Source of the DNA: a virus
Taxonomy: Duplodnaviria > Caudoviricetes
IMG/VR virus record: IMGVR_UViG_3300044714_000251
Span: 1 to 55,154 of that record
DNA length: 55,154 nucleotides
Reading direction: 5' to 3' (one strand)
Position numbers and translations under genes: made by a program. Numbering within the stretch: the stretch's first letter is position 1; every line of letters begins with the position of its first letter. Below are positions 21,504 through 44,712 of this stretch, piece by piece. The notes below the pieces were generated by a model that made no database searches, had not been told where the DNA came from, and saw only the letters and a program-made list of their open reading frames with translations.

Positions 21504-21952
21504 ACCAGACGTCTCTTGAGAAGTCAAACGGAACAAAGCCGGCCGAAGAGCCTCCGGCGCCCAAGGTCTTCACGGTCGCTCTCGTCGACGGATCCATCTG
21601 GCAGCTTGGAGAATCGGTCCCGGGGACCGATGAGACGGGGGCTCTGGATGCGTCCGGAAATCTCGACGTCGGGAAGCTTGGCAAGCAAGCGATCAAGGTC
21701 CTGGCGATGCACGAGCAGGGGGATGGCTCCGTGAAGGTCTACGGGATGCCTGTCCCAGGGAGCAACTACGACGAGCAGAAGACGGCATTTGTCATTACAC
21801 TCTCCTCGCACACGATCCGAAGCGTTGTGACCGCCGCGCGGTTCGATGTCTGGCATGAGCTTCTCGAGGACGAGGAGTTCGAAGATGACGAAGAGGAAGA
21901 GATCGAAGAAGACGTGAAGCCGCAGAACGTGTCCAACGGAGCTACCTCGTGA
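21500..21952 (+). CDS. Hypothetical protein with acidic tail
   Basis: ATGA-coupled ORF. Confidence 0.6.
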   Translation: MNQTSLEKSNGTKPAEEPPAPKVFTVALVDGSIWQLGESVPGTDETGALDASGNLDVGKLGKQAIKVLAMHEQGDGSVKVYGMPVPGSNYDEQKTAFVITLSSHTIRSVVTAARFDVWHELLEDEEFEDDEEEEIEEDVKPQNVSNGATS

Positions 21953-22272
21953 GCTCGACAGCGACTCTCACCTACGAGGTGACAGCCGTCGGGCCGACGG
22001 TGCCGTCGAACCTCGAGACGGCCATGGCCGCGGTCGTCTTGAATCACACAGGCATCGCCGAGATCACGGGGGCAGCGCTCGCGAGCGACACCACGACGAT
22101 TGCGGGACCGGTGGTGACGAGAACGGTGGTGTTCGACATCGCGACCACCGATTTTCAGCGCCGTTTCCCTGTGGGATCGGATCAGGGCGCACCCTTTCGC
22201 GGGATCTACACCTCGTTCTTTGGGGCGCAGCTCAACACGCAGGTGAACGAGCAGCCTGTGGTGATTGCCTGA
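21949..22272 (+). CDS. Thr/Val-rich putative virion protein
   Basis: Beta-type composition; GTGA-coupled. Confidence 0.55.
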   Translation: MSSTATLTYEVTAVGPTVPSNLETAMAAVVLNHTGIAEITGAALASDTTTIAGPVVTRTVVFDIATTDFQRRFPVGSDQGAPFRGIYTSFFGAQLNTQVNEQPVVIA

Positions 22273-23807
22273 TGCCTCGTCGATTGAAGGAGAACCCGCC
22301 GGAAGATCCGAACGCGACGATGGACGACGTGACGTCCGCGCTCCACTCCGCGGATGTCCCCAAGAACCCGGACGGGACAGTCGTCGAGGAAGGAGAGGTT
22401 TCCGTTCTCCAGGCGCAGAACATCGGAGCTCTGGATCCGGTCTCCGACGCGGAAAACCAGAAATTCACGAAGGTGCTCCAGCGGAAGATTGCGGGGGCGG
22501 ACGGCTACGTTCCGTGGGGCGGCGACCTTTATCGCATCTACGAGGGGATTCGAACCGTTCTCGTAAGCGAGTGGTCTCAGCTCTCGGTGATCGTGAGTTG
22601 TCCGGCCACGAACGTGCAGTTTCCGCCCAAGCCGGCGGCGACGTTCAAGTCGTACCAGGAGCTCTACGAGTACGTGGAGCAGTGTCACGGGTACGGACCT
22701 TCAGCGACCTACAATGTCAAAATCACGAGCCGAAAGGGCATGGTCCGAGGGCAGGCGCCCCTCACGCTTCCCGATCGCGCGCCGTCCCTTCAGCCGCCTC
22801 CGCAGGTAATGCAGCAGCAACAGTATGGCGGCCCCCCCGTGGTTGTGAACATGCCGAGGCAAGAGCAGCCGATGGCGCCCGCGCCGGAGCCGCAGCACTC
22901 CGACCGGCTCACGGAAATGCTGCTCTCGCAGCAGCAGCAGCAAACCGCAATGGTCCTCGGCGCCCTCAAGGAACTCGCGGAGGTCATCCGCAAGCCTCAA
23001 ATGCCGCCCGGGTTTATTCCGCTCCCGGAGGGCTGGCCGACGATCCCTCAGGGGTACGTGGCGGTGCCGGGGGGCTGCATTCCTGCGCCGCAGCTCCCGG
23101 CGCCAGCCCCTCCTCCCCAGGTCATTCAGGTGCCCACGCCCCAGGCTAGCCCCGTGGTTCAGGCGACTCCGGTTCCAAATACAAATTCCGCGCCGCAAGG
23201 ACCGGCCCAGCAAGTTGAGGGTGCGGTCAAGATGATGTCCTCTCTCTTCAAGAGCATGGAGGACTTCAAGACGATGTTCGGGGGCGTGGGAGGCACGGTT
23301 GCGGGCGCTGCGGAAGATGTGCTCGAGGAAGAGGTCGCGGAGTCCGCGGTTTCGACGGTTCCCATTGGCGATGGCTTGAACATGGTCCTGAACAAAAAGG
23401 ACCAAACGACCAACTGGCCGGCGACGATCTTCGCGGCTCTTCCGAAGCTTCTCGAGATTGGAAAAGCAGGAGTGGCGGAGTACTCCAAGGTCGTCGACAA
23501 GCAGGCGGCCATCGCGCAGCAAATGACGGCGTCTCGTATCCGCCTTGCGCAGGAGGTGCAGCGCGTTCAAGGGGCCGTGCAGCCGGAGGCCCCGCAAGCA
23601 CTCGCTCCCCCTACACCACCTCCTCCGATCGAAGTGCGACAGCAAGCCTCTCAGACGGCGCGTTCGGTGCCGGGGACACGTCGACGCGACCCATGGACGA
23701 CGATCAAGCCGCTCTGGGCCACCCCCTCCGCGCCGGCTCCCGAAGAGGAAGCTCCGAGGGTGGAGCCTTCGGTTTCCGAGCCTGTCGCGTCCCCAGCGAC
23801 CGGGTAG
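22272..23807 (+). CDS. Pro/Gln-rich 511-aa protein, function unknown (scaffold or assembly candidate)
   Basis: Long ORF; begins MPRRLKENP. Confidence 0.7.
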   Translation: MPRRLKENPPEDPNATMDDVTSALHSADVPKNPDGTVVEEGEVSVLQAQNIGALDPVSDAENQKFTKVLQRKIAGADGYVPWGGDLYRIYEGIRTVLVSEWSQLSVIVSCPATNVQFPPKPAATFKSYQELYEYVEQCHGYGPSATYNVKITSRKGMVRGQAPLTLPDRAPSLQPPPQVMQQQQYGGPPVVVNMPRQEQPMAPAPEPQHSDRLTEMLLSQQQQQTAMVLGALKELAEVIRKPQMPPGFIPLPEGWPTIPQGYVAVPGGCIPAPQLPAPAPPPQVIQVPTPQASPVVQATPVPNTNSAPQGPAQQVEGAVKMMSSLFKSMEDFKTMFGGVGGTVAGAAEDVLEEEVAESAVSTVPIGDGLNMVLNKKDQTTNWPATIFAALPKLLEIGKAGVAEYSKVVDKQAAIAQQMTASRIRLAQEVQRVQGAVQPEAPQALAPPTPPPPIEVRQQASQTARSVPGTRRRDPWTTIKPLWATPSAPAPEEEAPRVEPSVSEPVASPATG

Positions 23808-23840
23808 CGCCTTTTCAGAGCTTCCGGTAGGCTGCGGAGC

Positions 23841-25259
23841 GTGATCTCCGTTCCCGAGGCCGGCGACATCGCGGGGCAGGTTCAGGCCGGCGTCGACCTC
23901 ATCTCCGCACTTGCGCAGGTCGCCAACGGAACGTTGGATGCTTCGGCGCTCGTCGAAAACGGAATTTCGATCGCGGGGGAGGCGTTGAGCGGTGGAATCA
24001 CGGCGGCTGCGGACGTCGTTGGAGCTGTGACGACGACCGCGCTATCGGGTCTGGCGATGACGGGGCCGACCGGAGCAGCCATCGCCGATGCGGTCGCGGC
24101 TGGGGTTTCGGCGGCGACGGCCGAGATTCCGGTGGTCGGCGAGGTGGTCGCCGTGGTGGCGGCTGTCATCGAGATTTTGGCGGCTTACGTCGGGGGTGGC
24201 GTCGATTCGGTCGACCAGGTGCTTGGCGCGTCCAAGGCGACGGCTCAGATCTGCGGTTCTATCGGACGATTTTCTTCCTCGCACAAGTCGCTCTCCGGAA
24301 ACCCAATCGGGTGGGAGATGGCGGACTATCTCGCGTTTGCGCGACCGCCAAGTTCGTCTACGTCGCCGGAGAAATTCAAGAGCCTCATGTCGGAGGTTGC
24401 CCAGTTTTACATCTCGAAGTCGAACTCCTACGCACCCGAGCTGAATCAATCGAACGACACGAACAACATCGTCAACGCGATCAACTCCTTCGTGGGGGTG
24501 GTAAACTCCTCGCTCCCCATCTACACGGCAGAAGAGTTTCTCTCCTGGCAAGTGCCGCTCTGCACGCCCGTGTGGTTCGACTGGTACAAGCCGACGGGGA
24601 TAGAAGACTGCAACACCGACCTCACCTTCGGGGGTGGCGGGGACTCGACGACCGCGCTCGCGCAGTGGCAAGCGATGGTTTCTTCCTCCGCCGCGCAAAA
24701 AAAGCTCAGTGCATGGCTCAAAGCCACGCCTTCCGTGGGTGGGCTCTCTCCGACACAAATCGTTCAGATGGCGATGGTTGCGCCACTTGACCCGCTCTAT
24801 TGGAGCTCGGATCTCTACGGGATGGTGGGGTCGAGTGGATCGGCCGACGGGTTCGCGACCGTCTACTACAACGTCGATCTGATGAACGGCATCGCCACGC
24901 ACCTGATGATGCGCGCCTCAGGCGCCTCCCCCATGGGAGTTCTCTCCGAGCTGCTCATGCAGTCCGCGCTTCTCTCGCAGTACGGCGGGACGGATTCGAG
25001 CGGCAACAGCATCCCCAATGTGTCGAAAAATCAATACGGATTTCATCGCCTTGTCGACGACTACATCACCTACGTCAACGCGCTCGGGTACTCGCAGTCG
25101 CTTTCGACCACGGGGATGGTCGGTGCGGTGGTGGCCGGTGCAGCGGGCGCGACATTGGTAGGCATTTTGGGGTATTCCCTTTGGAAGAGGCAGTCGCCTC
25201 TCGTGACGGTCGGTCAGGCAAAATCAAAAATCATTCGAGTCGGAGGCAGGTACCTATGA
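23841..25259 (+). CDS. Putative virion membrane protein with hydrophobic N-terminal hairpin and C-terminal TM
   Basis: IPVVGEVVAVVAAVIEILAAYVGGG; C-terminal TM followed by a basic tail; TAGGCT-7nt-GTG. Confidence 0.7.
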   Translation: MISVPEAGDIAGQVQAGVDLISALAQVANGTLDASALVENGISIAGEALSGGITAAADVVGAVTTTALSGLAMTGPTGAAIADAVAAGVSAATAEIPVVGEVVAVVAAVIEILAAYVGGGVDSVDQVLGASKATAQICGSIGRFSSSHKSLSGNPIGWEMADYLAFARPPSSSTSPEKFKSLMSEVAQFYISKSNSYAPELNQSNDTNNIVNAINSFVGVVNSSLPIYTAEEFLSWQVPLCTPVWFDWYKPTGIEDCNTDLTFGGGGDSTTALAQWQAMVSSSAAQKKLSAWLKATPSVGGLSPTQIVQMAMVAPLDPLYWSSDLYGMVGSSGSADGFATVYYNVDLMNGIATHLMMRASGASPMGVLSELLMQSALLSQYGGTDSSGNSIPNVSKNQYGFHRLVDDYITYVNALGYSQSLSTTGMVGAVVAGAAGATLVGILGYSLWKRQSPLVTVGQAKSKIIRVGGRYL

Positions 25260-25771: not shown

Positions 25772-25778
25772 GGGATCC

Positions 25779-27035
25779 ATGGAAGACTTCGCGTTCAGCA
25801 TCCGTCCCCCCGTTTCTCCGATCGGATTCGGCGCGGTCCCTGAGGGGCTCGGGCAACATGCCACAGCCTCCGCGCATCCTTCGTTGAACTCGATAGCGAT
25901 CCCTCATGGATCGGGGACTCCCGCGAAGCACAAGCCCCACCCCCACCGTGGCGTGGGCTCGTTCGCGGCCGCGTCACCCCAGAAGGCGAATTGGGTGCTG
26001 GCCTACGTCTACGGAGAGCGCGCACCGCGCGTGAAGATCAAGGGGAGCGGGTTCGACTACGCGAAGGTGCTTCAGCAGTTTGTGCAATCCGGCCAGCCTT
26101 CGCAGTACTTCACGTGGACGGGTACGGGCGGAACGTTTCTCTTCTCGTGCATCTACTCGGGCTCGACACCTGTGGTGCGGCTCGCGACGAACGGTCTTCA
26201 GCGCGGAATGGGACGCAAGCCAACGGGGATGGGGGACATCACGCCGGGCACCGTGACGTGCAACGCCAGCTGGATCACGATCAACTCGCCGGGTCCGAAC
26301 GCGGACTCCTTCAGCCTCACTGGATCAGACATCTCCGGCGCGCTGACGACGATGAAGAACGCATGGTCTCTCGCCATGGGCGGGAAGACGACGCCGTTCA
26401 CGGTCTCGAACGGGGCGATGCACTTCATTTTCTCAAGCGATCACACCGCGAACATCCCGATGAAGTACGACGGCGTGAATCTTTACGCGTGTGGAGTGCC
26501 GGTCACCGCGGCTCCTTCTTCGCCGCCTGCCGTGCAACCGATCGCAACCCAAGGCGTGACGCCGATCTCGGGAGGCACCTCCGTCGACAACGGCACCTAC
26601 ACCTGGGACAATTACATGTGGGTGTACCAAGCGTCGGGGTCGAACGACTCTCCAAACGGCTCTCCCCCTCCGGGACAGCCCGCGGGCGTGTCGGGGGCAT
26701 GGGTAAACGTCTCGGGCAACCAATGGAACTACTATCCGAACTCAGGCCCCCAACCGCTCCCGGTGGTCGATCCCACGGGGGTGACGTGGTGGACGTACTC
26801 GAGCGCGAACGCGGCGATGTACAACGCTCCGTCTTCGGCGTACATGCCGCCTCTTCCGGGCTCGACAGTCCCGCCAGCGTCGCTTGCGGGGACGAGCGGG
26901 TCCTGGTCGGGGAACGTGCACTCCTACTACCAGGTGTGGATTCCGACGGCCGGAATGACCGACGGTGAAATTCTCGCGATCGTTCTCCTCGGTGCGCTCG
27001 GAGTGGGTGGCGTCGCGTACCTGGTGTCGGAATGA
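25779..27035 (+). CDS. C-terminally anchored multi-domain membrane protein with several G-phi-G motifs
   Basis: IGFGAVPEGLGQ, RGVG, RGMGRKPTGMGD; Trp/Pro-rich domain; terminal TM. Confidence 0.75.
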   Translation: MEDFAFSIRPPVSPIGFGAVPEGLGQHATASAHPSLNSIAIPHGSGTPAKHKPHPHRGVGSFAAASPQKANWVLAYVYGERAPRVKIKGSGFDYAKVLQQFVQSGQPSQYFTWTGTGGTFLFSCIYSGSTPVVRLATNGLQRGMGRKPTGMGDITPGTVTCNASWITINSPGPNADSFSLTGSDISGALTTMKNAWSLAMGGKTTPFTVSNGAMHFIFSSDHTANIPMKYDGVNLYACGVPVTAAPSSPPAVQPIATQGVTPISGGTSVDNGTYTWDNYMWVYQASGSNDSPNGSPPPGQPAGVSGAWVNVSGNQWNYYPNSGPQPLPVVDPTGVTWWTYSSANAAMYNAPSSAYMPPLPGSTVPPASLAGTSGSWSGNVHSYYQVWIPTAGMTDGEILAIVLLGALGVGGVAYLVSE

Positions 27036-27403
27036 ACGGCGTAGGCTCTCCGACGGGACTCGGCATCACAGCACCGCCCGCCGCGATCAGCGGAGGGTAT
27101 GTGCCCCCGACGATTCACGCACAGCCGCTCCCCGCGCCCTCGTCCACGACCCCCACGACAGCACCCGCCTCAAGTGCTCTGACCGCACCAAGCTCGGCGC
27201 TCATGGGGAGCACATACCAAGGTCCTCGCCGCGGCACGGCCACGTGGGTTTACATTCTTGGGGGTGTCGCTGCGCTCGGAGTGATGGGCGCGCTCTATTG
27301 GGCGTTCATGCAGCCGGGGAACTCGCCGAGCGCGGCGGCGTCGGAGGGCTACCCGAAATCGAATCCGATGAGGCGTCGGCGACGTCGGCGACACAGGAAG
27401 TGA
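27032..27403 (+). CDS. Membrane protein with NP-poly-Arg C-terminus
   Basis: NGVGSPTGLG..., TM, KSNPMRRRRRRRHRK. Confidence 0.65.
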   Translation: MNGVGSPTGLGITAPPAAISGGYVPPTIHAQPLPAPSSTTPTTAPASSALTAPSSALMGSTYQGPRRGTATWVYILGGVAALGVMGALYWAFMQPGNSPSAAASEGYPKSNPMRRRRRRRHRK

Positions 27404-28305
27404 ACCGGGGGCTCGGCAAGGGCTTCGCTCCGTCGGCCTCGGCGGCCGCTGCGGCCATGCCGGGGGCGAAGATTCGCCAAGAGTCGCATCCGCCGGGCGT
27501 TGCGGGAACCACATTTTCTCTGAAGGAGATGGCGAAGTACATCCGCGATGGCCGGAACGACCCCAGGATGATCGGGTGGGCAGGACGTGTCTTGGTGAAG
27601 GCAGGAAAGCCGAAGAGCGTCACGGCTCAGGCGCAGGCCATCCTGGACGAGATTCGGCGCGTGACGATGTATCTCCCCGACGGTGTCAACACGGAAAGAG
27701 TGACCGCCGCTCCGGTTTCGCTTTGCCTCGACGAGCACGGTCTCTGTCTCCCCGCAGGCGACTGCGACGATCGCTGCGTGTGTTTTGGCTCGGGCACGAT
27801 GGCGCTCGGCATTGAGACCATGGTGGTGGCCCAAGCCTATGACGGGAGCGGTCCCAACGTCCGAGCCACGCACGTGATCTGCGCGATTTTGGATCCGAGT
27901 ACGGGCTGGCAGCGTGTCGACCCGTCGACCGACGACTTCCCGGTTGGAAAGTCGTATCCTGCGACGAAGGAGTGGTGGATGGACCCGATCACAGGCACGA
28001 CAGCGTCAACCCCTGAGGGAGCGATGCAACCGCAGGCGAACCAAGAAGCCATGCGTGGCGACTTTATCGGCGTCGGTGCTGTGCCGCGCGGTCCGGTGGT
28101 CTACGGGCATCCAACGGGTCTCGGCGCCGTTCCGTTCGAGCACGCTTTCGGTGCAGTCGACGAGGGGTGCGAGCAAGGCCCCGCGGACGTAACCGCGGAT
28201 CTCACGCACGGCGACTGCCGGCAGAGGTTTCCTCTCTACGCTCCGCAGCCCATCGGGGTCGGAGACATCCCGGTGTTTCCGGAGTGGGTTCGACGTGGCC
28301 GATAA
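27400..28305 (+). CDS. Transglutaminase-like cysteine protease (candidate maturation protease)
   Basis: GDCDD (Cys), ATHVICAI (His), WQRVDPS (Asp) in canonical order. Confidence 0.7.
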   Translation: MNRGLGKGFAPSASAAAAAMPGAKIRQESHPPGVAGTTFSLKEMAKYIRDGRNDPRMIGWAGRVLVKAGKPKSVTAQAQAILDEIRRVTMYLPDGVNTERVTAAPVSLCLDEHGLCLPAGDCDDRCVCFGSGTMALGIETMVVAQAYDGSGPNVRATHVICAILDPSTGWQRVDPSTDDFPVGKSYPATKEWWMDPITGTTASTPEGAMQPQANQEAMRGDFIGVGAVPRGPVVYGHPTGLGAVPFEHAFGAVDEGCEQGPADVTADLTHGDCRQRFPLYAPQPIGVGDIPVFPEWVRRGR

Positions 28306-28738
28306 GGCACCGACGATTCAAGCGGAGTCGAACCGCGTCATGTTCGAGATGGTCGACGGCAAGCTTGTGCGACTTCCGCCGTCGTACCGGACGCTTCACG
28401 ATCCGACGGGCACGGCGTTGCCGAAGTGCGACGTGTTCTTTGCCCCCATCAAGCGTACTTCACAAAAGGTCGACATGGGCCGCGCGGCGCGGCGTTACTT
28501 TGGTCCTGAACATCGAGGGGTCATCGCTATTCTTCCGCGTGTGAAAGACGGACCGTGGAAGGTGATCGGGAGGGTGGCCGTGATCTACTACGCGAGGCTG
28601 GGGAAACGGGCTCCGGGCGGCTTCAATCACCCGTTCAAATCGAGACAGCCCACACTCTCGAAGTCTTCGCGTGGATATTACAAGCTTTCGCTCGGACAAG
28701 GATGCTTGGTCGACGACCGAGGATACGTGTTCCCCTAG
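28295..28738 (+). CDS. Basic hypothetical protein
   Basis: 147-aa ORF overlapping the upstream stop. Confidence 0.6.
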   Translation: MADKAPTIQAESNRVMFEMVDGKLVRLPPSYRTLHDPTGTALPKCDVFFAPIKRTSQKVDMGRAARRYFGPEHRGVIAILPRVKDGPWKVIGRVAVIYYARLGKRAPGGFNHPFKSRQPTLSKSSRGYYKLSLGQGCLVDDRGYVFP

Positions 28739-28751
28739 CGGAATCGTTCAC

Positions 28752-30401: not shown

Positions 30402-30750
30402 GAAGAGCACTCTATTCCGGCGTGGTATCGTCAGCAATATGAAGCGCCGTGGCGACGACTACGTAGATCGCATGAACAGGTTTCGCGCCGGAGAACCGTC
30501 CGGTATTGCAAACAGTGAAACTTGTATTGCAAAGCAAACTGATTCTTACGGTATTGCACGTAAGACGTCTCGACGAAAGAAGCGAAGGCCCTCCGCTTCG
30601 CTTTCGCCCGAGAAAACAAGCGCGCGCCGCAAAACAAGGCACGTCGTTGCAATACATCGTAAGCACCCCAGAAAGCGCTCTTCCAGAGGTTTGACGGGGC
30701 GATCTCAGGCGGGTACGGTCACGGAGTTATCCCAACAGGAGACTCGTTAC
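30402..30750. promoter_or_regulatory. Divergent control region of the structural operon
   Basis: TTGACG-17-TACGGT (30691-30719); AGGAG RBS; four GTATTGC sites (30503, 30524, 30551, reverse 30649-30655). Confidence 0.65.
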
Positions 30751-32115: not shown

Positions 32116-32142
32116 TTTCCAGAGAGAGCTGATTTCCAGAGA
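32112..32142 (+). repeat. 14-bp direct repeat CTGATTTCCAGAGA x2
   Basis: 32112-32125 and 32129-32142, upstream of the capsid candidate. Confidence 0.8.
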
Positions 32143-32184
32143 AAACGTCGAGGGTTCTCTATTGGGGCCCTCCAGGAGAGACAC

Positions 32185-33453: not shown

Positions 33454-33465
33454 GGCGCTTAGGAC

Positions 33466-33502: not shown

Positions 33503-33531
33503 AGTTCTTCTCAAGGAGCTTCTGGAGACCC

Positions 33532-34155: not shown

Positions 34156-34168
34156 ACGGAGGCACCCC

Positions 34169-35101
34169 TTGCGTAGAGGTCGATCAGAGCTTGTCACCGT
34201 AGGTCAGAACCCGAATCTCCAGCTCGTTGGCTCCGGGCCAGAAGGGGGGCCGTACGACCTCGGCCTGATGATCGGGCCGAATGGCGGCGCGCGCATTCGG
34301 CAGACGTTTCTCCTGGCAACCAAGACCTTCGGCGCGCACACGCGCGGGTACTTGAGAGGTCTGCGGCAGTACTTGACGATTGGTACCTACCTGCCTGTCT
34401 CGGGGACCGCGCAAGGGTACCTGCTCGAGACGCCGGTGGTCACGCCGACGTGGAAGTTTTCGGACGGGAACGTGATGTGGATGCTCCGGAAGATTCCGGG
34501 ATCCAAGAGCCACTTCACGCCGAACGCGAGCAACGGTCCTGGCATTTCGTTCCGCACCGCAAACACTCCCTCGCTCCTCTTCGAGACGGTCACGGGGAAT
34601 CCTCCGTACGTGACCTCGACCCCGCCCTACGGCGGAAGGCCTCCGGGCAACATTCTCGTGCCCGAGCTTGGAAGGTTTTTCGACCTCCGTTCGTCCTGGG
34701 CAGAGCCCCTCGAGCTCGACATTGAGATCTCGGGGCCTTGCACGATTGCGTTTTTCGCGAGCGTTCAGCAGACGATCCCGATCTCCGCCGGCGGGACGCA
34801 AATCGTCCCCCCGGCCACTCCGGTCATTTCCACGATCGCGGGAGCGGCGCCTGAGGACGCGTTTCTCCAGACCTACTCCTCGAGCGGCACGCCCGTGAGC
34901 TACATTCGCATTGCGGGTGCGCTCCAATTCGAGTACGTCGACTTCGCGCCGAGTGGCATGCCGAAGACCTACCGCTCCGCGTCGGTCGGGGATCGGCTCA
35001 CGAGCGACCGCGCGGTCACGGGAGACAACGAGATCCGGCAGAGCGGCGCGATCACGAGCGGCACGGGCGTGCCGATCGATTGCGAAGGCGGAAAGAAATG
35101 A
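34169..35101 (+). CDS. Putative virion protein
   Basis: 310 aa, beta/Pro-rich, GGAGG RBS. Confidence 0.6.
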   Translation: MRRGRSELVTVGQNPNLQLVGSGPEGGPYDLGLMIGPNGGARIRQTFLLATKTFGAHTRGYLRGLRQYLTIGTYLPVSGTAQGYLLETPVVTPTWKFSDGNVMWMLRKIPGSKSHFTPNASNGPGISFRTANTPSLLFETVTGNPPYVTSTPPYGGRPPGNILVPELGRFFDLRSSWAEPLELDIEISGPCTIAFFASVQQTIPISAGGTQIVPPATPVISTIAGAAPEDAFLQTYSSSGTPVSYIRIAGALQFEYVDFAPSGMPKTYRSASVGDRLTSDRAVTGDNEIRQSGAITSGTGVPIDCEGGKK

Positions 35102-36151: not shown

Positions 36152-36152
36152 G

Positions 36153-36890
36153 ATGTCCTGCTCCGCACACCCGGTTGTTGACGAGATCTCTCTTGCGCTG
36201 TGGATGAGCTCGACCATGCCGCCCGAACTCCCTGCCCCGCCCGATCCCCGCACCCTTCAGGGGATTGGTGCGGCCATCTCCGAACTCTCGAGACAAGCCA
36301 AGGATGGTTTCGAAGGTCTGCGCCGTGACGTCAAGGGGGTCCGCGAAGACGTGCTCGAGGTCCGCGAAGAGCTGCGCGACGTGCGGAAAGAGCAAATGCG
36401 CGCAGACATCCGGATGGACAAGGTCGAAGAGCGCCTTGAAATTGTAGAGGAGTCCCCGGCGAAGACCGAGGCCTCCGAAACCGCGGCCCGAGCCGCCGAG
36501 GCGGTTGCGCAGGCTGCGGCGGAGGCGGCGAGGTCGGTGGCGAGCGCGGCTTCTCTCGCGCTCAAGCAAGAGCGACGGGAGCGACAAGCGGAGCGACCCA
36601 GTAAGATCTCTCTCGAGACGGCGAGCAAGGTCGTTCTGAACTCGATGCCTCCGCCGAAGTACGATCTCGGCGTGCAGATCTCGGACTCGGGCGTTCACAT
36701 GAAAATGCCGACGGATGAGTACAAGCGTCTCGTGACGCAGAACCAAGCCGCGGCAGCTCTTCGGCGCGAGAAGTGGGTCCTTCACAAGGGCTCCGTGCTT
36801 TTGATGATCGTCGCCTCTGCGTTTTTGGGAGGGGCTGCCAAGTCGTGCGCTTCGGCGCTGGTGCATTCGCACGTGGAGAATCGACCATGA
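36153..36890 (+). CDS. Coiled-coil protein with C-terminal TM
   Basis: Heptads LRRDVKGVREDVLEVREELRDV; hydrophobic C-terminus; start uncertain. Confidence 0.6.
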   Translation: MSCSAHPVVDEISLALWMSSTMPPELPAPPDPRTLQGIGAAISELSRQAKDGFEGLRRDVKGVREDVLEVREELRDVRKEQMRADIRMDKVEERLEIVEESPAKTEASETAARAAEAVAQAAAEAARSVASAASLALKQERRERQAERPSKISLETASKVVLNSMPPPKYDLGVQISDSGVHMKMPTDEYKRLVTQNQAAAALRREKWVLHKGSVLLMIVASAFLGGAAKSCASALVHSHVENRP

Positions 36891-38206
36891 ACCGAGCTCT
36901 TTTGGCTACCGTTGCTCTCCTCGCCGCCGAAGGCATCTATCGTCCCGTGGGAGGAGGTGGGGGTGGCAGCGGGATCACGCAGCTCACAGGGGACGTCACT
37001 GCGGGACCTGGTTCCGGTGCGGTTCCGGCAACCGTGGCTCGAATCAACGGGGCGACGGTGCCCGCGGCAGGTGCGCTGACGACAGGCAACGTGCTCCAGG
37101 TGACGGGCACGAGCGCTCTCGGCTATGCGGCCGTCAATCTCGCAGGGGGGGCGGGTTACATCACGGGCAACCTCCCCGTCACCAACATCGCCCCGGCGGG
37201 AACGAACGGATTTGTTCTCACGACCACCGGGGGCGTGACGGGGTGGGCCGCAGCTACGGGCGGAAGCGGCATTACGGCACTCACCGGAGACGTGACAGCC
37301 TCCGGGACAGGATCGGTGGCTGCAACGGTCGTACGCCTCACGGGCACAGGAGGCGTGGTCACGGTCCCCACGGCCACACTGAACTTCGGCACGAACCCCT
37401 CTACGACGGGGGCCATCAACCTCGCCAACGGAACAGGCATCTACCAGAGAAACGCGGCAAACACCGCCGACATCCGCTTCCTGGACATGGACACGGTCAA
37501 CGAGATCCTCATCGGGGATTACGGCGCCGCCAACGTGACTCTCGTCTCGAATTCGGGGCTCGTCGTCGATACCGCTTCGGGAGGTGTGTTCTCGTATGAG
37601 GGGACGACGCTGTCGACAAGCGCCGGAAACGCCGCTTTCAACGGAACAGGCTCTTTTGGAGGAGGTTCTGGCGTTATCGGTCTTCTGACCGCCGCGACTC
37701 AACCCACAACACTCCCGGCGGGACTTGTGCTCGCCGAGGGAGCAACAGGGCTTTTTGCCTATCAACCCGGAAACTCGTTCAATCGGCGGTCCTTCTGTCC
37801 TGTCCCCCAAGGAACCGCAGCCTCGCAAGCCGCAACCGTGGTGGACTTTTTCGGTTTTGCTTCGACGACGACGGGCGCGACGACCACGACCATCGTGACG
37901 ATTCCTTTGCCCGGGTCCAGCAACTCTATTGGGATGATCGTGACGGCCGTCGGCCGGCAAACCTCGGGGACCGTGGGCGCAACGACTGTCATCTCCCAGA
38001 CGGTCGGATTCAAGAACATCGCCGGCACCGTCACGGCCTTGACGACTCAGGGCACGGCCACCGTGGCGTTCGATACGGGCTTCACGGGCGGCTCAATCGG
38101 GTACGCGATCTCGGGTACGAATGTGGAAATTCAAGTGAATCAAGGGGGAACTGCGGCTGGCAATGCGGATTGGACTTGTTACGTCACGGCGTGCGTGTAC
38201 AACTGA
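36887..38206 (+). CDS. Gly/Thr-rich fibre or spike protein
   Basis: GITQLTGDVTA repeated; beta-rich C-terminal head. Confidence 0.7.
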   Translation: MNRALLATVALLAAEGIYRPVGGGGGGSGITQLTGDVTAGPGSGAVPATVARINGATVPAAGALTTGNVLQVTGTSALGYAAVNLAGGAGYITGNLPVTNIAPAGTNGFVLTTTGGVTGWAAATGGSGITALTGDVTASGTGSVAATVVRLTGTGGVVTVPTATLNFGTNPSTTGAINLANGTGIYQRNAANTADIRFLDMDTVNEILIGDYGAANVTLVSNSGLVVDTASGGVFSYEGTTLSTSAGNAAFNGTGSFGGGSGVIGLLTAATQPTTLPAGLVLAEGATGLFAYQPGNSFNRRSFCPVPQGTAASQAATVVDFFGFASTTTGATTTTIVTIPLPGSSNSIGMIVTAVGRQTSGTVGATTVISQTVGFKNIAGTVTALTTQGTATVAFDTGFTGGSIGYAISGTNVEIQVNQGGTAAGNADWTCYVTACVYN

Positions 38207-38803: not shown

Positions 38804-38806
38804 TCT

Positions 38807-38849: not shown

Positions 38850-38855
38850 TCGGGG

Positions 38856-39403: not shown

Positions 39404-39418
39404 AGTAAGCTCGTCCCT

Positions 39419-40135
39419 ATGCCGGACGTGCTGGCCCGACGGGCAAAGGTGATTGCAGACGAGGCCCTTCTCCGTGCCGTCCATGGCGGAGGAGGTGGGG
39501 GCGGCGGCATCACGCAACTCACGGGAGATGTCACGGCGGGTCCCGGCTCGGGTGCAGTTGCGGCCATAGTGGCTCGAGCCAACGGGGCGACGATTCCGGC
39601 GGCGGGCGGACTCACTCCAGGCAACGTTCTTCAAGTTACCGGAGCGAGCGCGCTCGGGTATGCGCCGGTCAACTTGGCTTCCGCGGCCTCTGTTACAGGG
39701 CTTCTTCCGGTCGCGAACATCGCGCCAGCGGGAACGAACGGGTTCATTCTCACAACGACAGGTGGCGTGGCCGTATGGGCCGCCAATGGAGGCGGATCCG
39801 ATCTCACCCCGCGCGTGACGGTCAATCATGGGAACTCTCCTTTTACGGCCCTTCCTGGATACCGGCACATTGTCGACGAGTCTGAAGGCGCCGTAACGAT
39901 CAACCTTCCTTTGGGATCTCCGGCGGGGACAGACATCGCGATCAAAATCCTCACAGGACCCACGACGAACGGGCTAACCGTAAATGCCCCCTCTGGAGGA
40001 ACCGTCGAACAGTCACTCGAGGAGGCGGGGAGCGGTGGGGTTTACGCATCCTCGGCAACGTTCACCTCCGCGCAGGACATCGGAACCTCATTCACGTGGG
40101 AGTGTGATGGGTCCAACAATTGGGAGGCCGTCTGA
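39419..40135 (+). CDS. Second fibre/spike protein, N-terminal paralogue of 36887..38206
   Basis: About 100 aa near-identical (GITQLTGDVTAGPGSGAV...NIAPAGTNGF.LTTTGGV); different C-terminus. Confidence 0.75.
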   Translation: MPDVLARRAKVIADEALLRAVHGGGGGGGGITQLTGDVTAGPGSGAVAAIVARANGATIPAAGGLTPGNVLQVTGASALGYAPVNLASAASVTGLLPVANIAPAGTNGFILTTTGGVAVWAANGGGSDLTPRVTVNHGNSPFTALPGYRHIVDESEGAVTINLPLGSPAGTDIAIKILTGPTTNGLTVNAPSGGTVEQSLEEAGSGGVYASSATFTSAQDIGTSFTWECDGSNNWEAV

Positions 40136-42840
40136 TGCGTTTGCTTTGGATTTTCCTTCTGGCTTTCGTTTCGGCATGTTCGGCGCGCAGCATCCCCGTG
40201 CCTGCACCCGAGACCAAAGACGCCACAGTAGTGGTAGAGCCTCCGCCTCCGACCGTTCCAGGACGTCTCCTTGGAGCAAACGGGAATTTTGCATTTCCCA
40301 TCGGCCCCGCCTCTCTGAGCGGATTCGACGCCGGAACATACCCCAACCCGATCATCCCCGAAGGCTCGCAAGGTACGTTTTACCCAGGATCAGTCTCGAA
40401 TCTTGTCGACCAGAACTCGCTCATCTGGGGTGACGTGACGCAGCCTGAATGGCAAGGTGTGAGTTGCTATCTCACGGGTCCTACGGGCACGCCACAACTC
40501 ATTGGAGGCGCGGGGCAGAGCCCCGACGGTTCGCAGGACGCGGTCTGGGTCAACGAAGGTGCGGTCTCGTCGGGGGTGCTTGCACTCTCCCACGACGCTT
40601 TCGTCCCGACCGGCGTGACGAGTTTCAATTTCGAGATCGACGTGATGAACGCGCCTGGGGGGAGCGCAGTTAGCGTCCCCATGATCATCCTGAATTCGAA
40701 TTCAGGATGCGGTGGCAATGGTGCGATAGCGACAAGCAACACGAGTACTTGCGTCACAACGAACTCATGGCAAACGTGCCGACTTGCATCGGGGACGGTG
40801 GCTCACGGCACGGCCTATACGGTTCAGATCCCGCTCAACTACTCCACCCTTGGGACTGCGGGGGCGACCTTTCTCATCGCGCGCGCGCGCATCGTACCGA
40901 CCGGGTCGATTTCGCCCCCGCTCTTTCGATCCCCTGAGTCCTCACCCGCCGGAAGCTTCTATCGCTACGAAGCGAGCCCTGTTCTTTGGGACAACATCCA
41001 CTCGGATTTTGTTGGGGTTGGCGGAGTGGGCGGAGTCGGCCTGGCTCCCTTCCGGCAGTACTTGTTTCAGAGCCCATTTGCCCGGATGGTCTTCCAATCC
41101 AACGGACAGACTCAGGTCGGTCTAGAGGTTTTGAACGCGGGACTCACGAGTACGCCCAACCAACAAGTGGGCGTCAATGTGAACGGACGTCCGTACGCGA
41201 GCTTTGTCGGCGCGACGTCGCCCATGGTCGAGGACGCTACAACCCTGACGCTTCCCTCGGGGAACAACGAGATCGAATTCGTCGGCGGCGAACAAGGTTA
41301 CATCGGGCTCGGAATCTATCCAGAGAGCGCCGGCATCAGCGGTGAGTTCGTCCGAGCGGCCTACTCGACCACACCTCTCACGGTGCTTCCTCCGCCAAAA
41401 CCCTCGCGAACCGTGGTGGTGTGGGGGGATTCGAAGGAGGCCGGGATCTGGAGCACGAATCCTCCTGCCCAGGGATTTCCGGTTCTGTTGAGGCAGATGC
41501 TTGGTGGTCAAACGAGCACGGTCATCGAGGCCGTCGGGTCGAGCACCCTGAACAACGACACCAACACTCCAGCGCTTATCACCCAACTCGCTCAGCGCAT
41601 GGCCCGTGCGCGACCAGACATTCTTCTGTCGGTCATCGGCCGCAACGACTGGGCCGATTCCACGATGACACCCACCGTCTTTACAGCAACACTCGAGGCA
41701 GCATGGGATGCCATTCACGCAGCCACTCCAAGCACGCAGATCGTGGCCGTCACCTGGTGGCTCGAGTCCGTTGCACAAGAGTCCTCGACGATCAGTGGGT
41801 TCACGCTCGCAAACTTTCGTGCGGCGGAGCAGAACGCGTGCACGGCGAGGCCTACCTACTGCGTGTTCATGAACGCATCGACGGGGATTCCAAACTGGAA
41901 TCAAGCCTCGGGAGCTGGATCTAGCCTCTACACCGACGGCGTCCACCCCTCGAACTACGGATCGGGACAAGCCGCCAGCTACGTAGGTCTTCAGGTCTCG
42001 CATCTTCTGCCTGCATCGTCTTCGCTTCAGAGCTGGTACCCAGCGGAAACGGCCCAGACATGCTTGGTTCAGGCGCAGAACGTCGCGGCGGGGAGCCACG
42101 ATCTTTGCATCTACGCAACCGATCAGGCGAATGTCATCTACTACGGAGACCAGTACAACAACGGCGTCTACATCAACTCGAGCGCGAGTGTCACGCTTGG
42201 CATTCCTGGCGCCGACGCTCTTACACTTGTCCGCGGGACGGGCGGAGGGACGCTGGAATTTACGGGAAACATTTTCCAGTTTTCGAACGTCGCAGCCTCG
42301 GCGAACGCAATCGTCAACCAGAGTCAGCCCATCACCGATATCCCAGCAACTCCACTGACGGTTCAGGCGCAAGGAGCTTCGACAGGGGCTGTCACCAATG
42401 TAGTGGGAGGGGTCACGCAAGTCTTGGCCGGGCAGGGGACCACGCCCGCGAACAACGGTGGCATCTTGTTGGGGTATGGGCTCCAGACAGCTCCCACGCC
42501 CTTTTTCAGTTACGGCACCGGCGGAAACGGATGGATCCCGCAGACCTCTTCACAGTCGCTCGCCACGACACCAGTCACCCTAACATCCACCGAACTCTTG
42601 ACGCCCTATGTGATCTACACAGGAGCTCTCTCGGCAAACCCCACCGTCGTGAATCTACCAAACGTCGCCGGCATGTGGTTCATGGACATTTCCGCGGTCA
42701 CGAACACCACGGGCAACGCCATTGAGTTCGTGAGCGGTTCGGCCACCTGCTCTACGATTCCAGGGGCTTTGACGGTCGCGAACGATCTCGTCATCGTCCA
42801 TACGACGGGCGCAAACGGCATCACCTGCGGACTCCTGTGA
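40135..42840 (+). CDS. Large lipoprotein-signal protein with SGNH/GDSL hydrolase domain
   Basis: MRLLWIFLLAFVSA-C; VVWGDS, IGRND, DGVHP. Confidence 0.8.
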   Translation: MRLLWIFLLAFVSACSARSIPVPAPETKDATVVVEPPPPTVPGRLLGANGNFAFPIGPASLSGFDAGTYPNPIIPEGSQGTFYPGSVSNLVDQNSLIWGDVTQPEWQGVSCYLTGPTGTPQLIGGAGQSPDGSQDAVWVNEGAVSSGVLALSHDAFVPTGVTSFNFEIDVMNAPGGSAVSVPMIILNSNSGCGGNGAIATSNTSTCVTTNSWQTCRLASGTVAHGTAYTVQIPLNYSTLGTAGATFLIARARIVPTGSISPPLFRSPESSPAGSFYRYEASPVLWDNIHSDFVGVGGVGGVGLAPFRQYLFQSPFARMVFQSNGQTQVGLEVLNAGLTSTPNQQVGVNVNGRPYASFVGATSPMVEDATTLTLPSGNNEIEFVGGEQGYIGLGIYPESAGISGEFVRAAYSTTPLTVLPPPKPSRTVVVWGDSKEAGIWSTNPPAQGFPVLLRQMLGGQTSTVIEAVGSSTLNNDTNTPALITQLAQRMARARPDILLSVIGRNDWADSTMTPTVFTATLEAAWDAIHAATPSTQIVAVTWWLESVAQESSTISGFTLANFRAAEQNACTARPTYCVFMNASTGIPNWNQASGAGSSLYTDGVHPSNYGSGQAASYVGLQVSHLLPASSSLQSWYPAETAQTCLVQAQNVAAGSHDLCIYATDQANVIYYGDQYNNGVYINSSASVTLGIPGADALTLVRGTGGGTLEFTGNIFQFSNVAASANAIVNQSQPITDIPATPLTVQAQGASTGAVTNVVGGVTQVLAGQGTTPANNGGILLGYGLQTAPTPFFSYGTGGNGWIPQTSSQSLATTPVTLTSTELLTPYVIYTGALSANPTVVNLPNVAGMWFMDISAVTNTTGNAIEFVSGSATCSTIPGALTVANDLVIVHTTGANGITCGLL

Positions 42841-43208
42841 GCACCCCCGGCATCGTCTCTTTCGGCCCCTCAGGTTCCAAGGGCTCGGTCACGGTTTCGA
42901 TCGTCGAGAACCCCGAAGAGCAAGCGAAGGGTCTCAGCGGTAGGAACGGCCTACCGCCGGACAGCGGAATGCTGTTTTGGTTCGGTCTTAGGGCCGATCA
43001 CGGATTCTGGATGAAGAACACCCTCTTGCCCCTCGACCTGGTGTTTCTCGACTACGACCGCGTGGTCGGTATCCTCACCTTGCAGCCCTTTGACCTGGAA
43101 GTGAGAAGGGTGGGCCGGCTCTCCACTGCCGTTCTCGAGACAGGGGCGGGGTGGTGTGCCTCGCACGGGGTGGTCGTTGGCGACAAGGTGACGATTTTCT
43201 TGACGTAG
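42837..43208 (+). CDS. DUF192 family protein
   Basis: KGLSGR, GMLF, FWMKNTLLPLDLVFLD, VLETGAG, VGDKV. Confidence 0.88.
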   Translation: MSTPGIVSFGPSGSKGSVTVSIVENPEEQAKGLSGRNGLPPDSGMLFWFGLRADHGFWMKNTLLPLDLVFLDYDRVVGILTLQPFDLEVRRVGRLSTAVLETGAGWCASHGVVVGDKVTIFLT

Positions 43209-43240
43209 GGTAGGCTCTTCCGAACCAGGAGACACCCCCT

Positions 43241-43486
43241 ATGGCCCGTCGACGTCGCTCCGCACACCGCCACTATGCCCGCCCGAACCCTTTGAGCGAC
43301 ACCGAGCTCATTGTAGGGGGACTTGTAGGGGTCGCTATCCTCAGCCTCGGCGGATATTTGGTCTACACGCACTACAACGCCCTTCCGGCCGGATCGACCG
43401 CACCGGGCGGGACGGTATCGAGCGTCTCGACCGATGCGAACGGGAACACGCTCATCAACGGGTACCCCGTTGCGTCGTCGAGCTAA
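43241..43486 (+). CDS. Small membrane protein, basic-NP-TM class
   Basis: MARRRRSAHRHYARPNPLSDTELIVGGLVGVAILSLGGYLVY. Confidence 0.7.
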   Translation: MARRRRSAHRHYARPNPLSDTELIVGGLVGVAILSLGGYLVYTHYNALPAGSTAPGGTVSSVSTDANGNTLINGYPVASSS

Positions 43487-43664
43487 GTCCTACCGGCGCA
43501 AGAACCCCTGGCCGGACACTGAGACGCTCGTCTTCGGTGCTGGGTTCGTGGCGATTTCTGCGCTTGGCATCGCGATGATCGCCGATGCGATCGGTTCGTC
43601 GGAGGACACCATGACGGATCTCGGGGACACCTCCACTCTCGCGACACTCGCCACGGTGGTTTGA
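43470..43664 (+). CDS. Small membrane protein, basic-NP-TM class
   Basis: RRRAKSYRRKNPWPDTETLVFGAGFVAISALGIAMIA. Confidence 0.6.
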   Translation: MRRRAKSYRRKNPWPDTETLVFGAGFVAISALGIAMIADAIGSSEDTMTDLGDTSTLATLATVV

Positions 43665-44086
43665 TGATGGCCGGGCTCGTCTTGGGGGCGCTCGCGCTCG
43701 GGCAGCTCCCGCCCGCGGAGGATGCGCCCCAGGGGCTCGGAACCATCCCGGTCGAGCCGCACGTCTATGGACAGTGGCCTTTCGAAGGTTTCCCCGAACA
43801 AGTCGTGCTGAACGGGCGGACGTTCAATCTCGCGAAATGGTCCTGGCCGCTCTACAGCGGCGTGCAGCAGCAATACCGCGAGGCGGTGCCGACGAACTCG
43901 CAGCACCTGATGATTTACGACGATCTCTCGTACGACGTTCAGCACATGGACGAGATCAACCCGGACGCGGGGAACCCCCTTCAGCACGCGGTCGTCGACG
44001 CTCCCGGCGCTACCTCGGCGGCGATGGCCGCTCTTGGCTTCGCGCTTGGGCTCGTCGGGGGTATTCTGCTCCTGAGGACGCTTTGA
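43664..44086 (+). CDS. Membrane protein with C-terminal TM and GLG motif
   Basis: PQGLGTIP; hydrophobic termini. Confidence 0.6.
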   Translation: MMAGLVLGALALGQLPPAEDAPQGLGTIPVEPHVYGQWPFEGFPEQVVLNGRTFNLAKWSWPLYSGVQQQYREAVPTNSQHLMIYDDLSYDVQHMDEINPDAGNPLQHAVVDAPGATSAAMAALGFALGLVGGILLLRTL

Positions 44087-44355
44087 AGAGCTACCGGCGC
44101 AAAAACCCCTACGAGCGGGCGAACCTCTCCGGCGTCGATCTCGCCGAGGAGGATCTCATCCTGATCGGTGTTGGCGTGACGGTCGTCGGCGTTGTCGGGT
44201 ACCTCCTGGTGACGAAAATTCTCGAAGCGCTCCCCTCCGGCGCAGAGGTCGCCGCTGCGCTGAACAGCACGATGGGTGGGAGCACGAACAACGGAAACGA
44301 CGTCCCCCCCGGGGAAGACCCGAACGAGCCTGAGAACCAGGTGGGCTATGAGTAA
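44083..44355 (+). CDS. Small membrane protein, basic-NP-TM class
   Basis: KSYRRKNPYE...EDLILIGVGVTVVGVVGYLLV. Confidence 0.65.
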   Translation: MKSYRRKNPYERANLSGVDLAEEDLILIGVGVTVVGVVGYLLVTKILEALPSGAEVAAALNSTMGGSTNNGNDVPPGEDPNEPENQVGYE

Positions 44356-44500
44356 GCGCCGAAAGGGCCGCCCCAATCCGCTCGACCCCAACGACTGGCT
44401 TAAGCTCGCGGTCGCGGGCGGCATCGTGTTCGCGATTGCTGTGGCCCTCTACAACAAAGCGAACGGCATCGGTGACTTCGCTCCCGAGGAGCCTTCATAA
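44348..44500 (+). CDS. Small membrane protein, basic-NP-TM class
   Basis: MSKRRKGRPNPLDPNDWLKLAVAGGIVFAIAVALY. Confidence 0.65.
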   Translation: MSKRRKGRPNPLDPNDWLKLAVAGGIVFAIAVALYNKANGIGDFAPEEPS

Positions 44501-44712
44501 TGGCCGCTCCCATCCGTTACACCGACAAGTCGACGATCACGATCGACGACAACGCCAAGACGCTGCTCATGCTCGGAGCCGTGGTGCTTGCCGGTGCAGC
44601 GACTTACCTCCTCGTGAGTCGCGTGGCGACGGCCATCTCGCCCGCGACGCTCACGCCGAGCCCGCTCCCGACGAGCGATCCGACGCCCGACCTTCCCGTC
44701 GTCCAGACCTAA
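44500..44712 (+). CDS. Small single-TM protein
   Basis: LLMLGAVVLAGAATYLLV; TAATG coupling. Confidence 0.65.
   Translation: MAAPIRYTDKSTITIDDNAKTLLMLGAVVLAGAATYLLVSRVATAISPATLTPSPLPTSDPTPDLPVVQT

Follow-up and report, generated by a model that had tools for sequence, protein, structure and literature searches.

A likely new lineage of tailless, membrane-containing double-stranded DNA viruses with jelly-roll proteins and no detectable packaging ATPase

Introduction

Sulfolobus polyhedral virus 1 (SPV1) of the Portogloboviridae has no packaging ATPase, and its virion has an outer jelly-roll shell and, within it, a membrane around a nucleoprotein core (PMC8459092), the lipid layer containing sub-capsomer and membrane proteins and the DNA being condensed by a dedicated protein (PMC8459092 and PMC8812541). 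Also the Odin and FLiP groups are described without a packaging ATPase in PMC5894146, where an assembly around the genome has been proposed. For prokaryotic viruses whose major capsid protein is a double jelly roll (DJR-MCP), genomes of <20 kbp are given in PMC8812541, and the tailless viruses of ANME-1 have genomes of about 10 kb (PMC9894754). The helvetiaviruses are tailless as well, have an internal membrane and are in some cases temperate (PMC12642351). The subject of this work is a virus genome from IMG/VR (record IMGVR_UViG_3300044714_000251), a single contig of 55,154 bp with about 62% G+C that was analysed over its whole length (the window), and in particular its structural block of co-oriented genes at positions 21949-44712.

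An earlier note on this DNA, made from its letters alone, had taken it for an undescribed tailless and membrane-rich lineage. It had listed a genome that closes on itself, no recognisable terminase, portal, tail or packaging ATPase, P-loops only in replication and recombination enzymes, about 25 small transmembrane proteins, a protamine-like protein, a trio of β-rich proteins, and fibres, and it had named as contrary evidence an HK97 capsid, terminase or tail fold, or signs of a partial genome that misses its head-tail module. The analysis described here supports that proposal. We regard it as likely that the window represents a new lineage of tailless double-stranded DNA (dsDNA) viruses that contain a membrane, do without a packaging ATPase and have genomes of 55-127 kb; the host would be a prokaryote, probably a bacterium. 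This reading draws on the predicted folds of two proteins, on the lack of matches to the hallmark profiles that were tried, on the conservation of the gene module and on complete genomes of relatives. No description of such a lineage was found in the literature, supplements aside.

Predicted jelly-roll proteins of the structural block

Three consecutive genes of the block carry the main evidence:

32185..33453, plus strand: candidate major virion protein of 422 residues with two β-rich halves (double-barrel-like), called from its AlphaFold2 model, the pattern of Foldseek matches and the G+C content at third codon positions (GC3)
33532..34155, plus strand: predicted single jelly-roll capsid protein of 207 residues, called from AlphaFold2 and Foldseek
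34169..35101, plus strand: third member of the trio, 310 residues, called from homologues, alignment and gene order

None of the three has a Pfam or PHROG match, and sequence-profile searches of the PDB gave no credible match (none for the 422- and 207-residue families and one chance match for the 310-residue family). A mutual relation of the three families was not detected with hhalign, look-ups of the 422- and 310-residue proteins in the ESM Atlas returned no usable match and no stored model, and no match to the 422-residue protein was found by tblastn in 50,697 phage records.

The AlphaFold2 model of the 207-residue protein, computed from an alignment of 40 sequences, is confident (pLDDT 84.3, pTM 0.79) and has about eight strands with flanking helices. 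Its single Foldseek match in the PDB at E<=1e-3 is 6oj0_A, chain A of the SPV1 reconstruction (E 2.9e-4, Foldseek probability 1.00, TM-scores 0.42/0.47, 16% identity), a likeness at the level of the fold only. The next matches are chains of HHIV-2 (probabilities 0.95, 0.91 and 0.75), SH1 (0.87) and HCIV-1 (0.85), and there are also a phage cement protein (0.99) and a nanovirus capsid protein (0.96). Seven of the eight listed matches with a probability of at least 0.85 are viral capsid or capsid-decoration proteins; the lower part of the list also contains meaningless RNA-polymerase entries. As modelled, the protein forms one jelly roll of a type that membrane-containing tailless archaeal viruses use as capsid protein.

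The model of the 422-residue protein (71 sequences, pLDDT 88.7, pTM 0.87) has about 19 strands in two halves, each of which includes a strand-long helix-strand element (residues 158-188 and 305-338). All 26 listed weak matches in the PDB are jelly-roll capsid proteins: 20 L1 proteins of papillomaviruses, three major capsid proteins (MCPs) of Faustovirus, two of Sulfolobus turreted icosahedral virus (STIV), and one SPV1 chain. In BFVD the listed matches are mostly capsid and penton proteins, with the capsid protein of tectivirus GC1 among the weak ones. The GC3 of the gene, 0.89, is the highest in the genome, as would suit strong expression. We tentatively read the product as a new type of capsid-like protein with a double barrel. 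For the 310-residue family, the alignment gives a conserved core of about 260 residues, an optional insertion of about 100 residues and a variable basic tail. The β-rich character that had been read from the translations of the trio is thus borne out by confident models for the 422- and 207-residue proteins.

Searches for packaging, portal and capsid genes

Profile hidden Markov models were searched in six frames against five records, namely the window and four relatives, three of which carry terminal repeats and have a completeness rating of 100%; control genomes did give matches. None of the five records matched the terminase families TerL_ATPase (PF03354) and Terminase_6N (PF03237), Phage_portal (PF04860), which was the sole portal family searched, the HK97 family Phage_capsid (PF05065), or the ATPase families FtsK_SpoIIIE (PF01580), Pox_A32 (PF04665) and DUF87/HerA (PF01935). 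The result was the same for Terminase_3 (PF04466) and for the PRD1-P3 family Phage_Capsid_P3_N, for which G407 replaced G004 in the set of five, and G407 was also negative for FtsK_SpoIIIE (0/1). PHROG portal matches were likewise absent, and no open reading frame (ORF) of the window of at least 250 residues had a Pfam or PHROG match to a large terminase.

When all six frames of the window were scanned with the patterns [AG]xxxxGK[ST] and GK[ST], credible Walker-A sites were found only in AAA_24, the SF2 helicase and PrimPol-VapE, in agreement with what had been seen before. The additional Walker-A proteins of the relatives G001, G002, G003 and G407 are a ComM/Mg-chelatase-like protein, a classical AAA protein, a D5-like primase-helicase, a dNMP-kinase-like protein, a UvrD helicase and PrimPol-VapE, and of these none lies inside the structural block and none is common to all genomes. 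AAA_24 was considered as a packaging ATPase and rejected, as it sits between a PD-(D/E)XK nuclease and a small protein in the replication/recombination module, a position that is kept in relatives.

Among the ten largest products of 21949-35101, nine belong to no Pfam or PHROG family, and the tenth is an IS605-type TnpB. The 25 PHROG queries, which covered 24 genes of the structural region and left out five small ORFs in 42837-44712, matched only a TnpB transposase, three weak tail-fibre entries and one weak family of unknown function; the tail-fibre entries belong to the products of 36105-36890 (E 9.8e-4 and 7.6e-3) and 40120-42840 (E 8.3e-4). Otherwise, nothing useful came from Pfam and PHROG searches with structural proteins, whether those of the window or those of the relative L005, and no long helical tape-measure candidate was seen among the translations of the block. 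Thus neither a family nor a fold of the HK97, terminase or tail kind came up, and the two ORFs that were modelled (starting at 32185 and 33532), out of five that the earlier note had put forward for this, are jelly-roll-like.

Conservation of the block and completeness of the genome

Homologues of the 422-residue protein are encoded on five IMG/VR contigs (L001-L005) with 50-88% identity, and all five have in the same order the genes for a transglutaminase-like protein, a 147-residue protein, a long basic membrane protein, the trio and a small transmembrane protein. In the more distant L024 (record G407; 79.8 kb, terminal repeats, 68% G+C), the homologue has 25% identity, and two genes downstream of it match the profiles of the 207-residue family (hhalign probability 96%, E 4e-9) and the 310-residue family (98.7%, E 4e-16). 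The co-oriented block with the trio is thereby conserved over a range of about 25-88% identity. A HMMER search of 1.84 billion representative sequences gave 163 clusters of 422-residue homologues at 50% identity, 48 of them below 1e-30. For the 207-residue protein there are 94 clusters at 90% identity, and for the 310-residue protein 38 homologues; the search with the distant homologue P0108 gave no relative on a viral contig.

An exact terminal repeat is absent from the window when its two ends are compared. Both ends lie inside an array of 15-bp tandem repeats (positions 1-303 and 54772-55074 are 91.7% identical), and this array codes for a pentapeptide-repeat protein, the ORF of which is open at both ends of the contig:

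54697..55154, plus strand: 5' part of the pentapeptide-repeat gene, which continues at window 1-750, the circular junction

The relative G001 (60,039 bp, with a direct terminal repeat of 91 bp) has nearly all of its genes collinear with those of the window and possesses one intact pentapeptide-repeat gene (5257-5970) that is matched by both window ends. As the two ends fall in one gene that G001 carries intact, the genome is essentially complete, and the window is best read as a circularly permuted, near-complete genome, the assembly of which broke inside the repeat. The circularity claimed in the earlier note is thus supported by synteny with G001 and not read directly. CheckV estimates 92% completeness. 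The GC3 of the pentapeptide-repeat gene is high (0.84-0.85), and the gene is also conserved in G001. Neither tRNA genes nor Rfam families were found in the window.

Relatives with terminal repeats have 60.0, 79.6, 79.8 and 127.5 kb, and the largest of them is not a concatemer. Those rated as 100% complete have the same gene set and are also without a head-tail module, which speaks against a partial genome. The largest, G002 (the record of L003), is twice as large as the window (127,529 bp), has a terminal repeat of 90 bp and shows no duplication inside; it additionally encodes a ComM/Mg-chelatase-like ATPase, a classical AAA ATPase and a D5-like primase-helicase; this is unusually large for a putative tailless prokaryotic virus.

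The sole hint at a host comes from two short contigs that are binned in metagenome-assembled genomes (MAGs) of Acidimicrobiales. A firm assignment to this order was rejected, as the profile of the 207-residue family matched one of 401 sampled Acidimicrobiales genomes, and that one was the MAG already known.

Membrane and basic proteins

The genes around the trio encode many predicted membrane proteins:

23841..25259, plus strand: 472-residue membrane protein, hydrophobic and rich in Ala/Gly in its N-terminal region and anchored by its C-terminus (transmembrane segments 89-117 and 425-443), conserved in L001-L003, no Pfam or PHROG match
25286-25771 and 25779-27035, plus strand: two paralogous C-tail-anchored membrane proteins (blastp 29% over 130 residues, E 1.4e-13)
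27032..27403, plus strand: 123-residue protein with one transmembrane segment (70-88) and the poly-Arg C-terminus RRRRRRRHRK, no PHROG match
30439..32115, plus strand: predicted membrane-anchored protamine-like protein of 558 residues, a basic N-terminal half followed by two transmembrane segments
35080-35424, 35205-35741, 35660-36151 and 36105-36890, plus strand: four C-tail-anchored membrane proteins with transmembrane segments near the C-termini, partly conserved, weak PHROG matches only
42837..44712, plus strand: a DUF192 protein followed by five small transmembrane proteins, conserved in G001 and G002

By a crude hydropathy scan, 14 ORFs in 21.9-44.7 kb are transmembrane-positive once a false positive caused by β-strands in the 422-residue protein is removed, and many of them have a single C-terminal anchor. 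Most proteins of the block carry transmembrane anchors. Outside the block, ten of 47 ORFs are positive, eight of which were judged credible (all within 1220-8333). Together with the C-anchored product of 25286-25771, whose hydrophobic C-terminus was read by eye in the translation, this amounts to about 23 transmembrane proteins in the window. In the 418-residue paralogue (25779-27035), the transmembrane segment is at 391-409, and the product of 36105-36890 has in addition a long charged, helix-like stretch. The DUF192 (COG1430) protein (42837-43208, Pfam E 1.8e-25) follows directly after the large fibre gene and has 63% identity in G001 and 53% in G002.

The protamine-like protein of the earlier note corresponds to the 558-residue product, for which the gene start was chosen by alignment with relatives. 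Residues 1-250 hold 95 Arg/Lys (38%), the two transmembrane segments follow, and the N-terminal halves of four homologues have 34-36% Arg/Lys. In all relatives, the gene for the basic membrane protein lies directly upstream of the 422-residue gene. A DNA condenser that is tethered to the membrane is proposed as the role of this protein, on account of its composition and its predicted anchors.

Other genes of the structural block

The remaining genes of the block include enzymes, fibres and conserved proteins:

21949..22272, plus strand: conserved 107-residue protein, first gene of the block, with homologues in L001, L002, L004 and the distant L024, no Pfam or PHROG match
22272..23807, plus strand: Pro/Gln-rich 511-residue protein, N-terminal part conserved in L001, L002, L004 and L005, no Pfam or PHROG match
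27478..28305, plus strand: predicted transglutaminase/papain-like Cys-His-Asp enzyme, start uncertain (ORF open from 26965)
28295..28738, plus strand: conserved 147-residue protein, 36-62% identical in L001-L005 and 27% in L024, no Pfam or PHROG match
28671-29990 (29991-30438 downstream): IS605-family TnpB (Pfam Cas12f1-like_TNB E 7e-21 and OrfB_IS605; phrog_506 transposase E 2.5e-40)
36773..38206, plus strand: fibre protein 1, 477 residues, no Pfam or PHROG match
39419..40135, plus strand: fibre protein 2, 238 residues, N-terminal module shared with fibre protein 1
40120..42840, plus strand: fibre or spike of 906 residues with a GDSL/SGNH esterase domain (Pfam Lipase_GDSL_2 E 1.9e-9; phrog_5240 tail fibre E 8.3e-4)

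In Pfam, the match of the transglutaminase-like protein to Transglut_core is weak and below the cut-off (E 0.0095), and C96 (in GDCDD), H132 and D148 are invariant in all six aligned homologues. Homologues are found in L001-L005 and L024, with long C-terminal extensions in L004, L005 and L024. The 511-residue protein has no Walker A motif and is possibly a scaffold or ruler. The TnpB gene, which lies between the 147-residue gene and the gene of the basic protein, is missing from all five relatives and is thus an insertion. The fibres that had been suspected in this region are represented by the 477- and 238-residue proteins, which share an N-terminal module of 130 residues with 69% identity, and by the 906-residue GDSL protein; tblastn of the 238-residue fibre against the same 50,697 phage records gave no match.

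In 28 proteins of the structural region (21.5-44.7 kb), 18 copies of the short motif G-[LFVMI]-G-x(1-3)-P were counted (mean of 3.7 and maximum of 10 in 500 residue shuffles), and in 28 other proteins four copies (shuffle mean 1.7). The motif is found near the N-terminus of the 422-residue protein (residues 18-24), the glycines G19 and G21 of which reach a conservation of at least 90% among 71 sequences, and in three copies in the C-terminal part of the transglutaminase-like enzyme; distant relatives are less enriched in it. It may serve as a signal for cleavage or docking.

Replication module and genes outside the block

Upstream of the structural block lies a module that holds the only credible P-loops of the genome:

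10626..21503: replication/recombination module (Pfam)
10626-13211, minus strand: PrimPol-VapE primase-helicase (Pfam)
13314-14273: PD-(D/E)XK nuclease (Pfam)
14270-15382: AAA_24 (Pfam)
16404-17900: SF2 helicase (Pfam)
20586-21503: RadC (Pfam)

The SF2 helicase matches 2092 phage records, all with <60% identity, and the replication module is thus of an ordinary, phage-like kind. Three further genes outside the block could be assigned, partly with weak matches:

1801-2520: Rv2525c-like glycoside-hydrolase-like protein (Pfam)
4570-5373: weak match to the papain family (Pfam)
45860..46795, plus strand: tyrosine integrase (Pfam Phage_integrase E 6e-28)

A homologue of the integrase is present in G003 and not in G001 or G002. 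We infer a temperate life style from the integrase here and in G003; an integrated copy was not found in the host search. The Rv2525c-like and papain-like genes belong to a cluster with eight small transmembrane proteins at 1220-8333, which may represent either a lysis cassette or another group of membrane proteins of the virion. One product of this cluster (1220-1897), with 68-71% identity in G001 and G002, also contains the G-L-G motif. Outside the block, the largest protein left unexplained has 527 residues (47865-49448), belongs to no Pfam or PHROG family and lacks a Walker A motif; it is 63% identical in G001.

Proposed assembly and alternative explanations

From the transmembrane proteins we infer a lipid membrane. 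In the proposed virion, the jelly-roll proteins of the trio (422, 207 and 310 residues) would form an icosahedral shell over a protein-rich membrane, and the membrane beneath this shell would be studded with many small, mostly C-tail-anchored proteins. The 558-residue protein would condense the circular genome on the inner face of the membrane with its basic N-terminal half, its C-terminal half spanning the membrane, and the 123-residue protein with the poly-Arg tail may help in this condensation. Because no packaging NTPase was found, shell and membrane would co-assemble around the condensed genome, as it has been proposed for ATPase-less jelly-roll viruses (PMC5894146 and PMC8812541) and as the architecture of SPV1 suggests (PMC8459092), and DNA would not be pumped into a preformed capsid. 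The fibres, one of them with the SGNH esterase, would recognise the host or mediate adsorption, the transglutaminase-like Cys-His-Asp enzyme would be a virion protease or a wall hydrolase, and the integrase would allow lysogeny.

A more far-reaching version of this proposal is held tentatively, with rather less than even credence. The viruses would be the bacterial counterparts of the SPV1-type "ancestral" jelly-roll viruses, at the level of a family or higher, that have grown to 55-127 kb; they would be motor-less, with a membrane-anchored protamine-like protein that condenses the DNA and with membrane and shell built around it, and the sequence G-L-G-x-x-P would be a processing or docking signal that is read by the Cys-His-Asp enzyme.

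Several points weigh against a tailless jelly-roll virus. The 207-residue match is modest (TM-scores 0.42-0.47), and cellular jelly rolls (the P-domain of furin/Kex2, C1q and pro-BMP9) are found lower in the same list. The 422-residue model has no Foldseek match at E<=1e-3 in the PDB or BFVD, its TM-scores being 0.07-0.23, and the label of a capsid protein therefore rests on the pattern of weak matches and on context. Fold models cover these two proteins alone, the 310-, 511- and 472-residue proteins being without models, and no sequence-profile link connects the trio to any PDB chain; alignments of the 207- and 310-residue families to VP16 and VP17 of P23-77 with hhalign gave probabilities of <1%. 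Genomes of 55-127 kb are several-fold above those of the prokaryotic jelly-roll viruses in the cited papers (<20 kbp for DJR-MCP viruses in PMC8812541), and such a size makes a motor-less assembly harder to imagine. Finally, the lineage is known from genomes alone.

Three other explanations have to be weighed, each of them improbable. The one that survives best is a tailless virus of a different, enveloped or pleomorphic or other architecture, in which for example the 207- and 310-residue proteins are a shell pair as in Helvetiavirae and the 422-residue protein is a spike or turret, or in which the jelly rolls coat a nucleoprotein inside an outer envelope. The order of the 207- and 310-residue genes mirrors that of VP16 and VP17 in P23-77, the 207-residue model matches capsid chains of sphaerolipoviruses, and many transmembrane proteins fit an inner or outer membrane alike; however, there is no profile similarity to VP16/VP17, the ATPase gene of the helvetiaviruses has no counterpart here, and within the trio the 422-residue protein shows the strongest conservation and the highest GC3, as expected of the main shell protein. 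We consider this architecture unlikely.

Slightly less probable still is a mobile element of non-viral nature, be it a plasmid or an integrative element, or one that spreads in membrane vesicles, the jelly rolls of which would be cell-surface or carbohydrate-binding proteins and not a capsid. Jelly rolls are indeed common in cellular proteins, and cellular domains are among the matches of the 207-residue protein; the lack of a significant structural match of the 422-residue protein, the lack of packaging machinery and the widely varying sizes of the relatives would also be compatible with such an element. Against it, viral capsid or capsid-decoration proteins make up seven of the eight listed 207-residue matches at a probability of at least 0.85, and capsid proteins all 26 listed PDB matches of the 422-residue protein; no transfer ATPase of the FtsK/TraB or HerA type was found, and the trio sits together with the basic protein, the fibres and a predicted wall-active enzyme in one conserved co-oriented block.

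Least probable is a very divergent tailed phage (Caudoviricetes) with terminase, portal, HK97 and tail proteins beyond the reach of profiles, since, for all that the size of 55-127 kb, the phage-type replication module, the integrase, the fibre-like proteins with weak PHROG tail-fibre matches and three large block proteins (511, 472 and 418 residues) without fold models would suit it, TerL is a P-loop ATPase and yet the Walker-A proteins in five genomes are all replication or auxiliary proteins, three TerL ATPase-domain families and the portal and HK97 families tried gave no match in five records, the two best-conserved and most codon-biased proteins are modelled as jelly rolls and not as HK97, most block proteins carry predicted transmembrane anchors, and no long helical tape-measure candidate is seen.

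A tailless, membrane-containing and ATPase-less jelly-roll virus thus remains the preferred explanation, and if it is true, it has several consequences. Prokaryotic ATPase-less jelly-roll viruses so far (SPV1, FLiP and the Odin group) are, in the cited papers, the smallest ones or are treated as evolutionary intermediates, and the route of assembly without a motor has up to now been known or proposed for no genome above about 20 kb; the sizes over which encapsidation can do without a motor would be extended several-fold. The lineage is broad, as can be seen from the 163 clusters of 422-residue and the 94 clusters of 207-residue homologues, and it would add a bacterial branch to the debate on the origins of Helvetiavirae, Portogloboviridae and Bamfordvirae. 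A classification based on markers (terminase, portal, HK97 and A32) would miss the whole group. In addition, the genomes yield testable proteins, namely a putative membrane-tethered DNA condenser and a candidate new capsid module.

Comparison with known viruses

The prokaryotic viruses with double jelly-roll proteins (Tectiviridae, Corticoviridae, Turriviridae and the "Odin" group) resemble the window in their numerous small membrane proteins, in the fibres at the vertices and in a major protein of some 400 residues with two β-rich halves, for which the 422-residue protein is the candidate here. To their capsid proteins, the 422-residue protein has weak matches (STIV, Faustovirus and tectivirus GC1) and no significant structural or sequence match, and the FtsK/HerA (A32-like) packaging ATPase of Bamfordvirae/Tectiliviricetes was found in none of the five records with any of the families searched.

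With the Helvetiavirae (Sphaerolipoviridae, Simuloviridae and Matshushitaviridae), the likeness lies in the 207-residue model, which matches chains of HHIV-2, SH1 and HCIV-1 with Foldseek probabilities of 0.75-0.95, and in the order of the 207- and 310-residue genes, which resembles the small-then-large arrangement of VP16 (173 residues) and VP17 (291 residues) in P23-77. In P23-77, the packaging ATPase gene is located just upstream of the capsid genes, whereas here the genes of the 422-residue β-rich protein and of the basic membrane protein are found upstream. Helvetiavirus genomes start at 16 kb, smaller than here, and reach up to 31 kb.

The Portogloboviridae share more with the window. 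SPV1 provides the best fold match of the 207-residue protein (6oj0_A) and one of the weak matches of the 422-residue protein, its genome is circular dsDNA, and a packaging ATPase, missing in SPV1, was not found here either, so that the proposal of an undescribed tailless lineage gains support from the nearest fold match as well as from this common lack. A core and a lipid layer like those of SPV1 are suggested here by genes alone, namely those of the Arg-rich membrane protein and the transmembrane proteins. SPV1 differs in its genome of 20 kb, its hyperthermophilic archaeal host (Saccharolobus), its VP1 nucleoprotein filament and its lack of replication proteins, and a search of the PDB with the profile of the 207-residue family gave no sequence similarity to it. 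Unlike SPV1, the lineage described here has 55-127 kb, a full phage-type replication module, an integrase, fibres, an additional two-domain protein of 422 residues and, as proposed, a membrane-anchored Arg-rich protein as the condenser. As genome size, gene content, the probable domain of the host and the condensing protein all differ, these viruses are not members of the Portogloboviridae, but this family is their closest known analogue.

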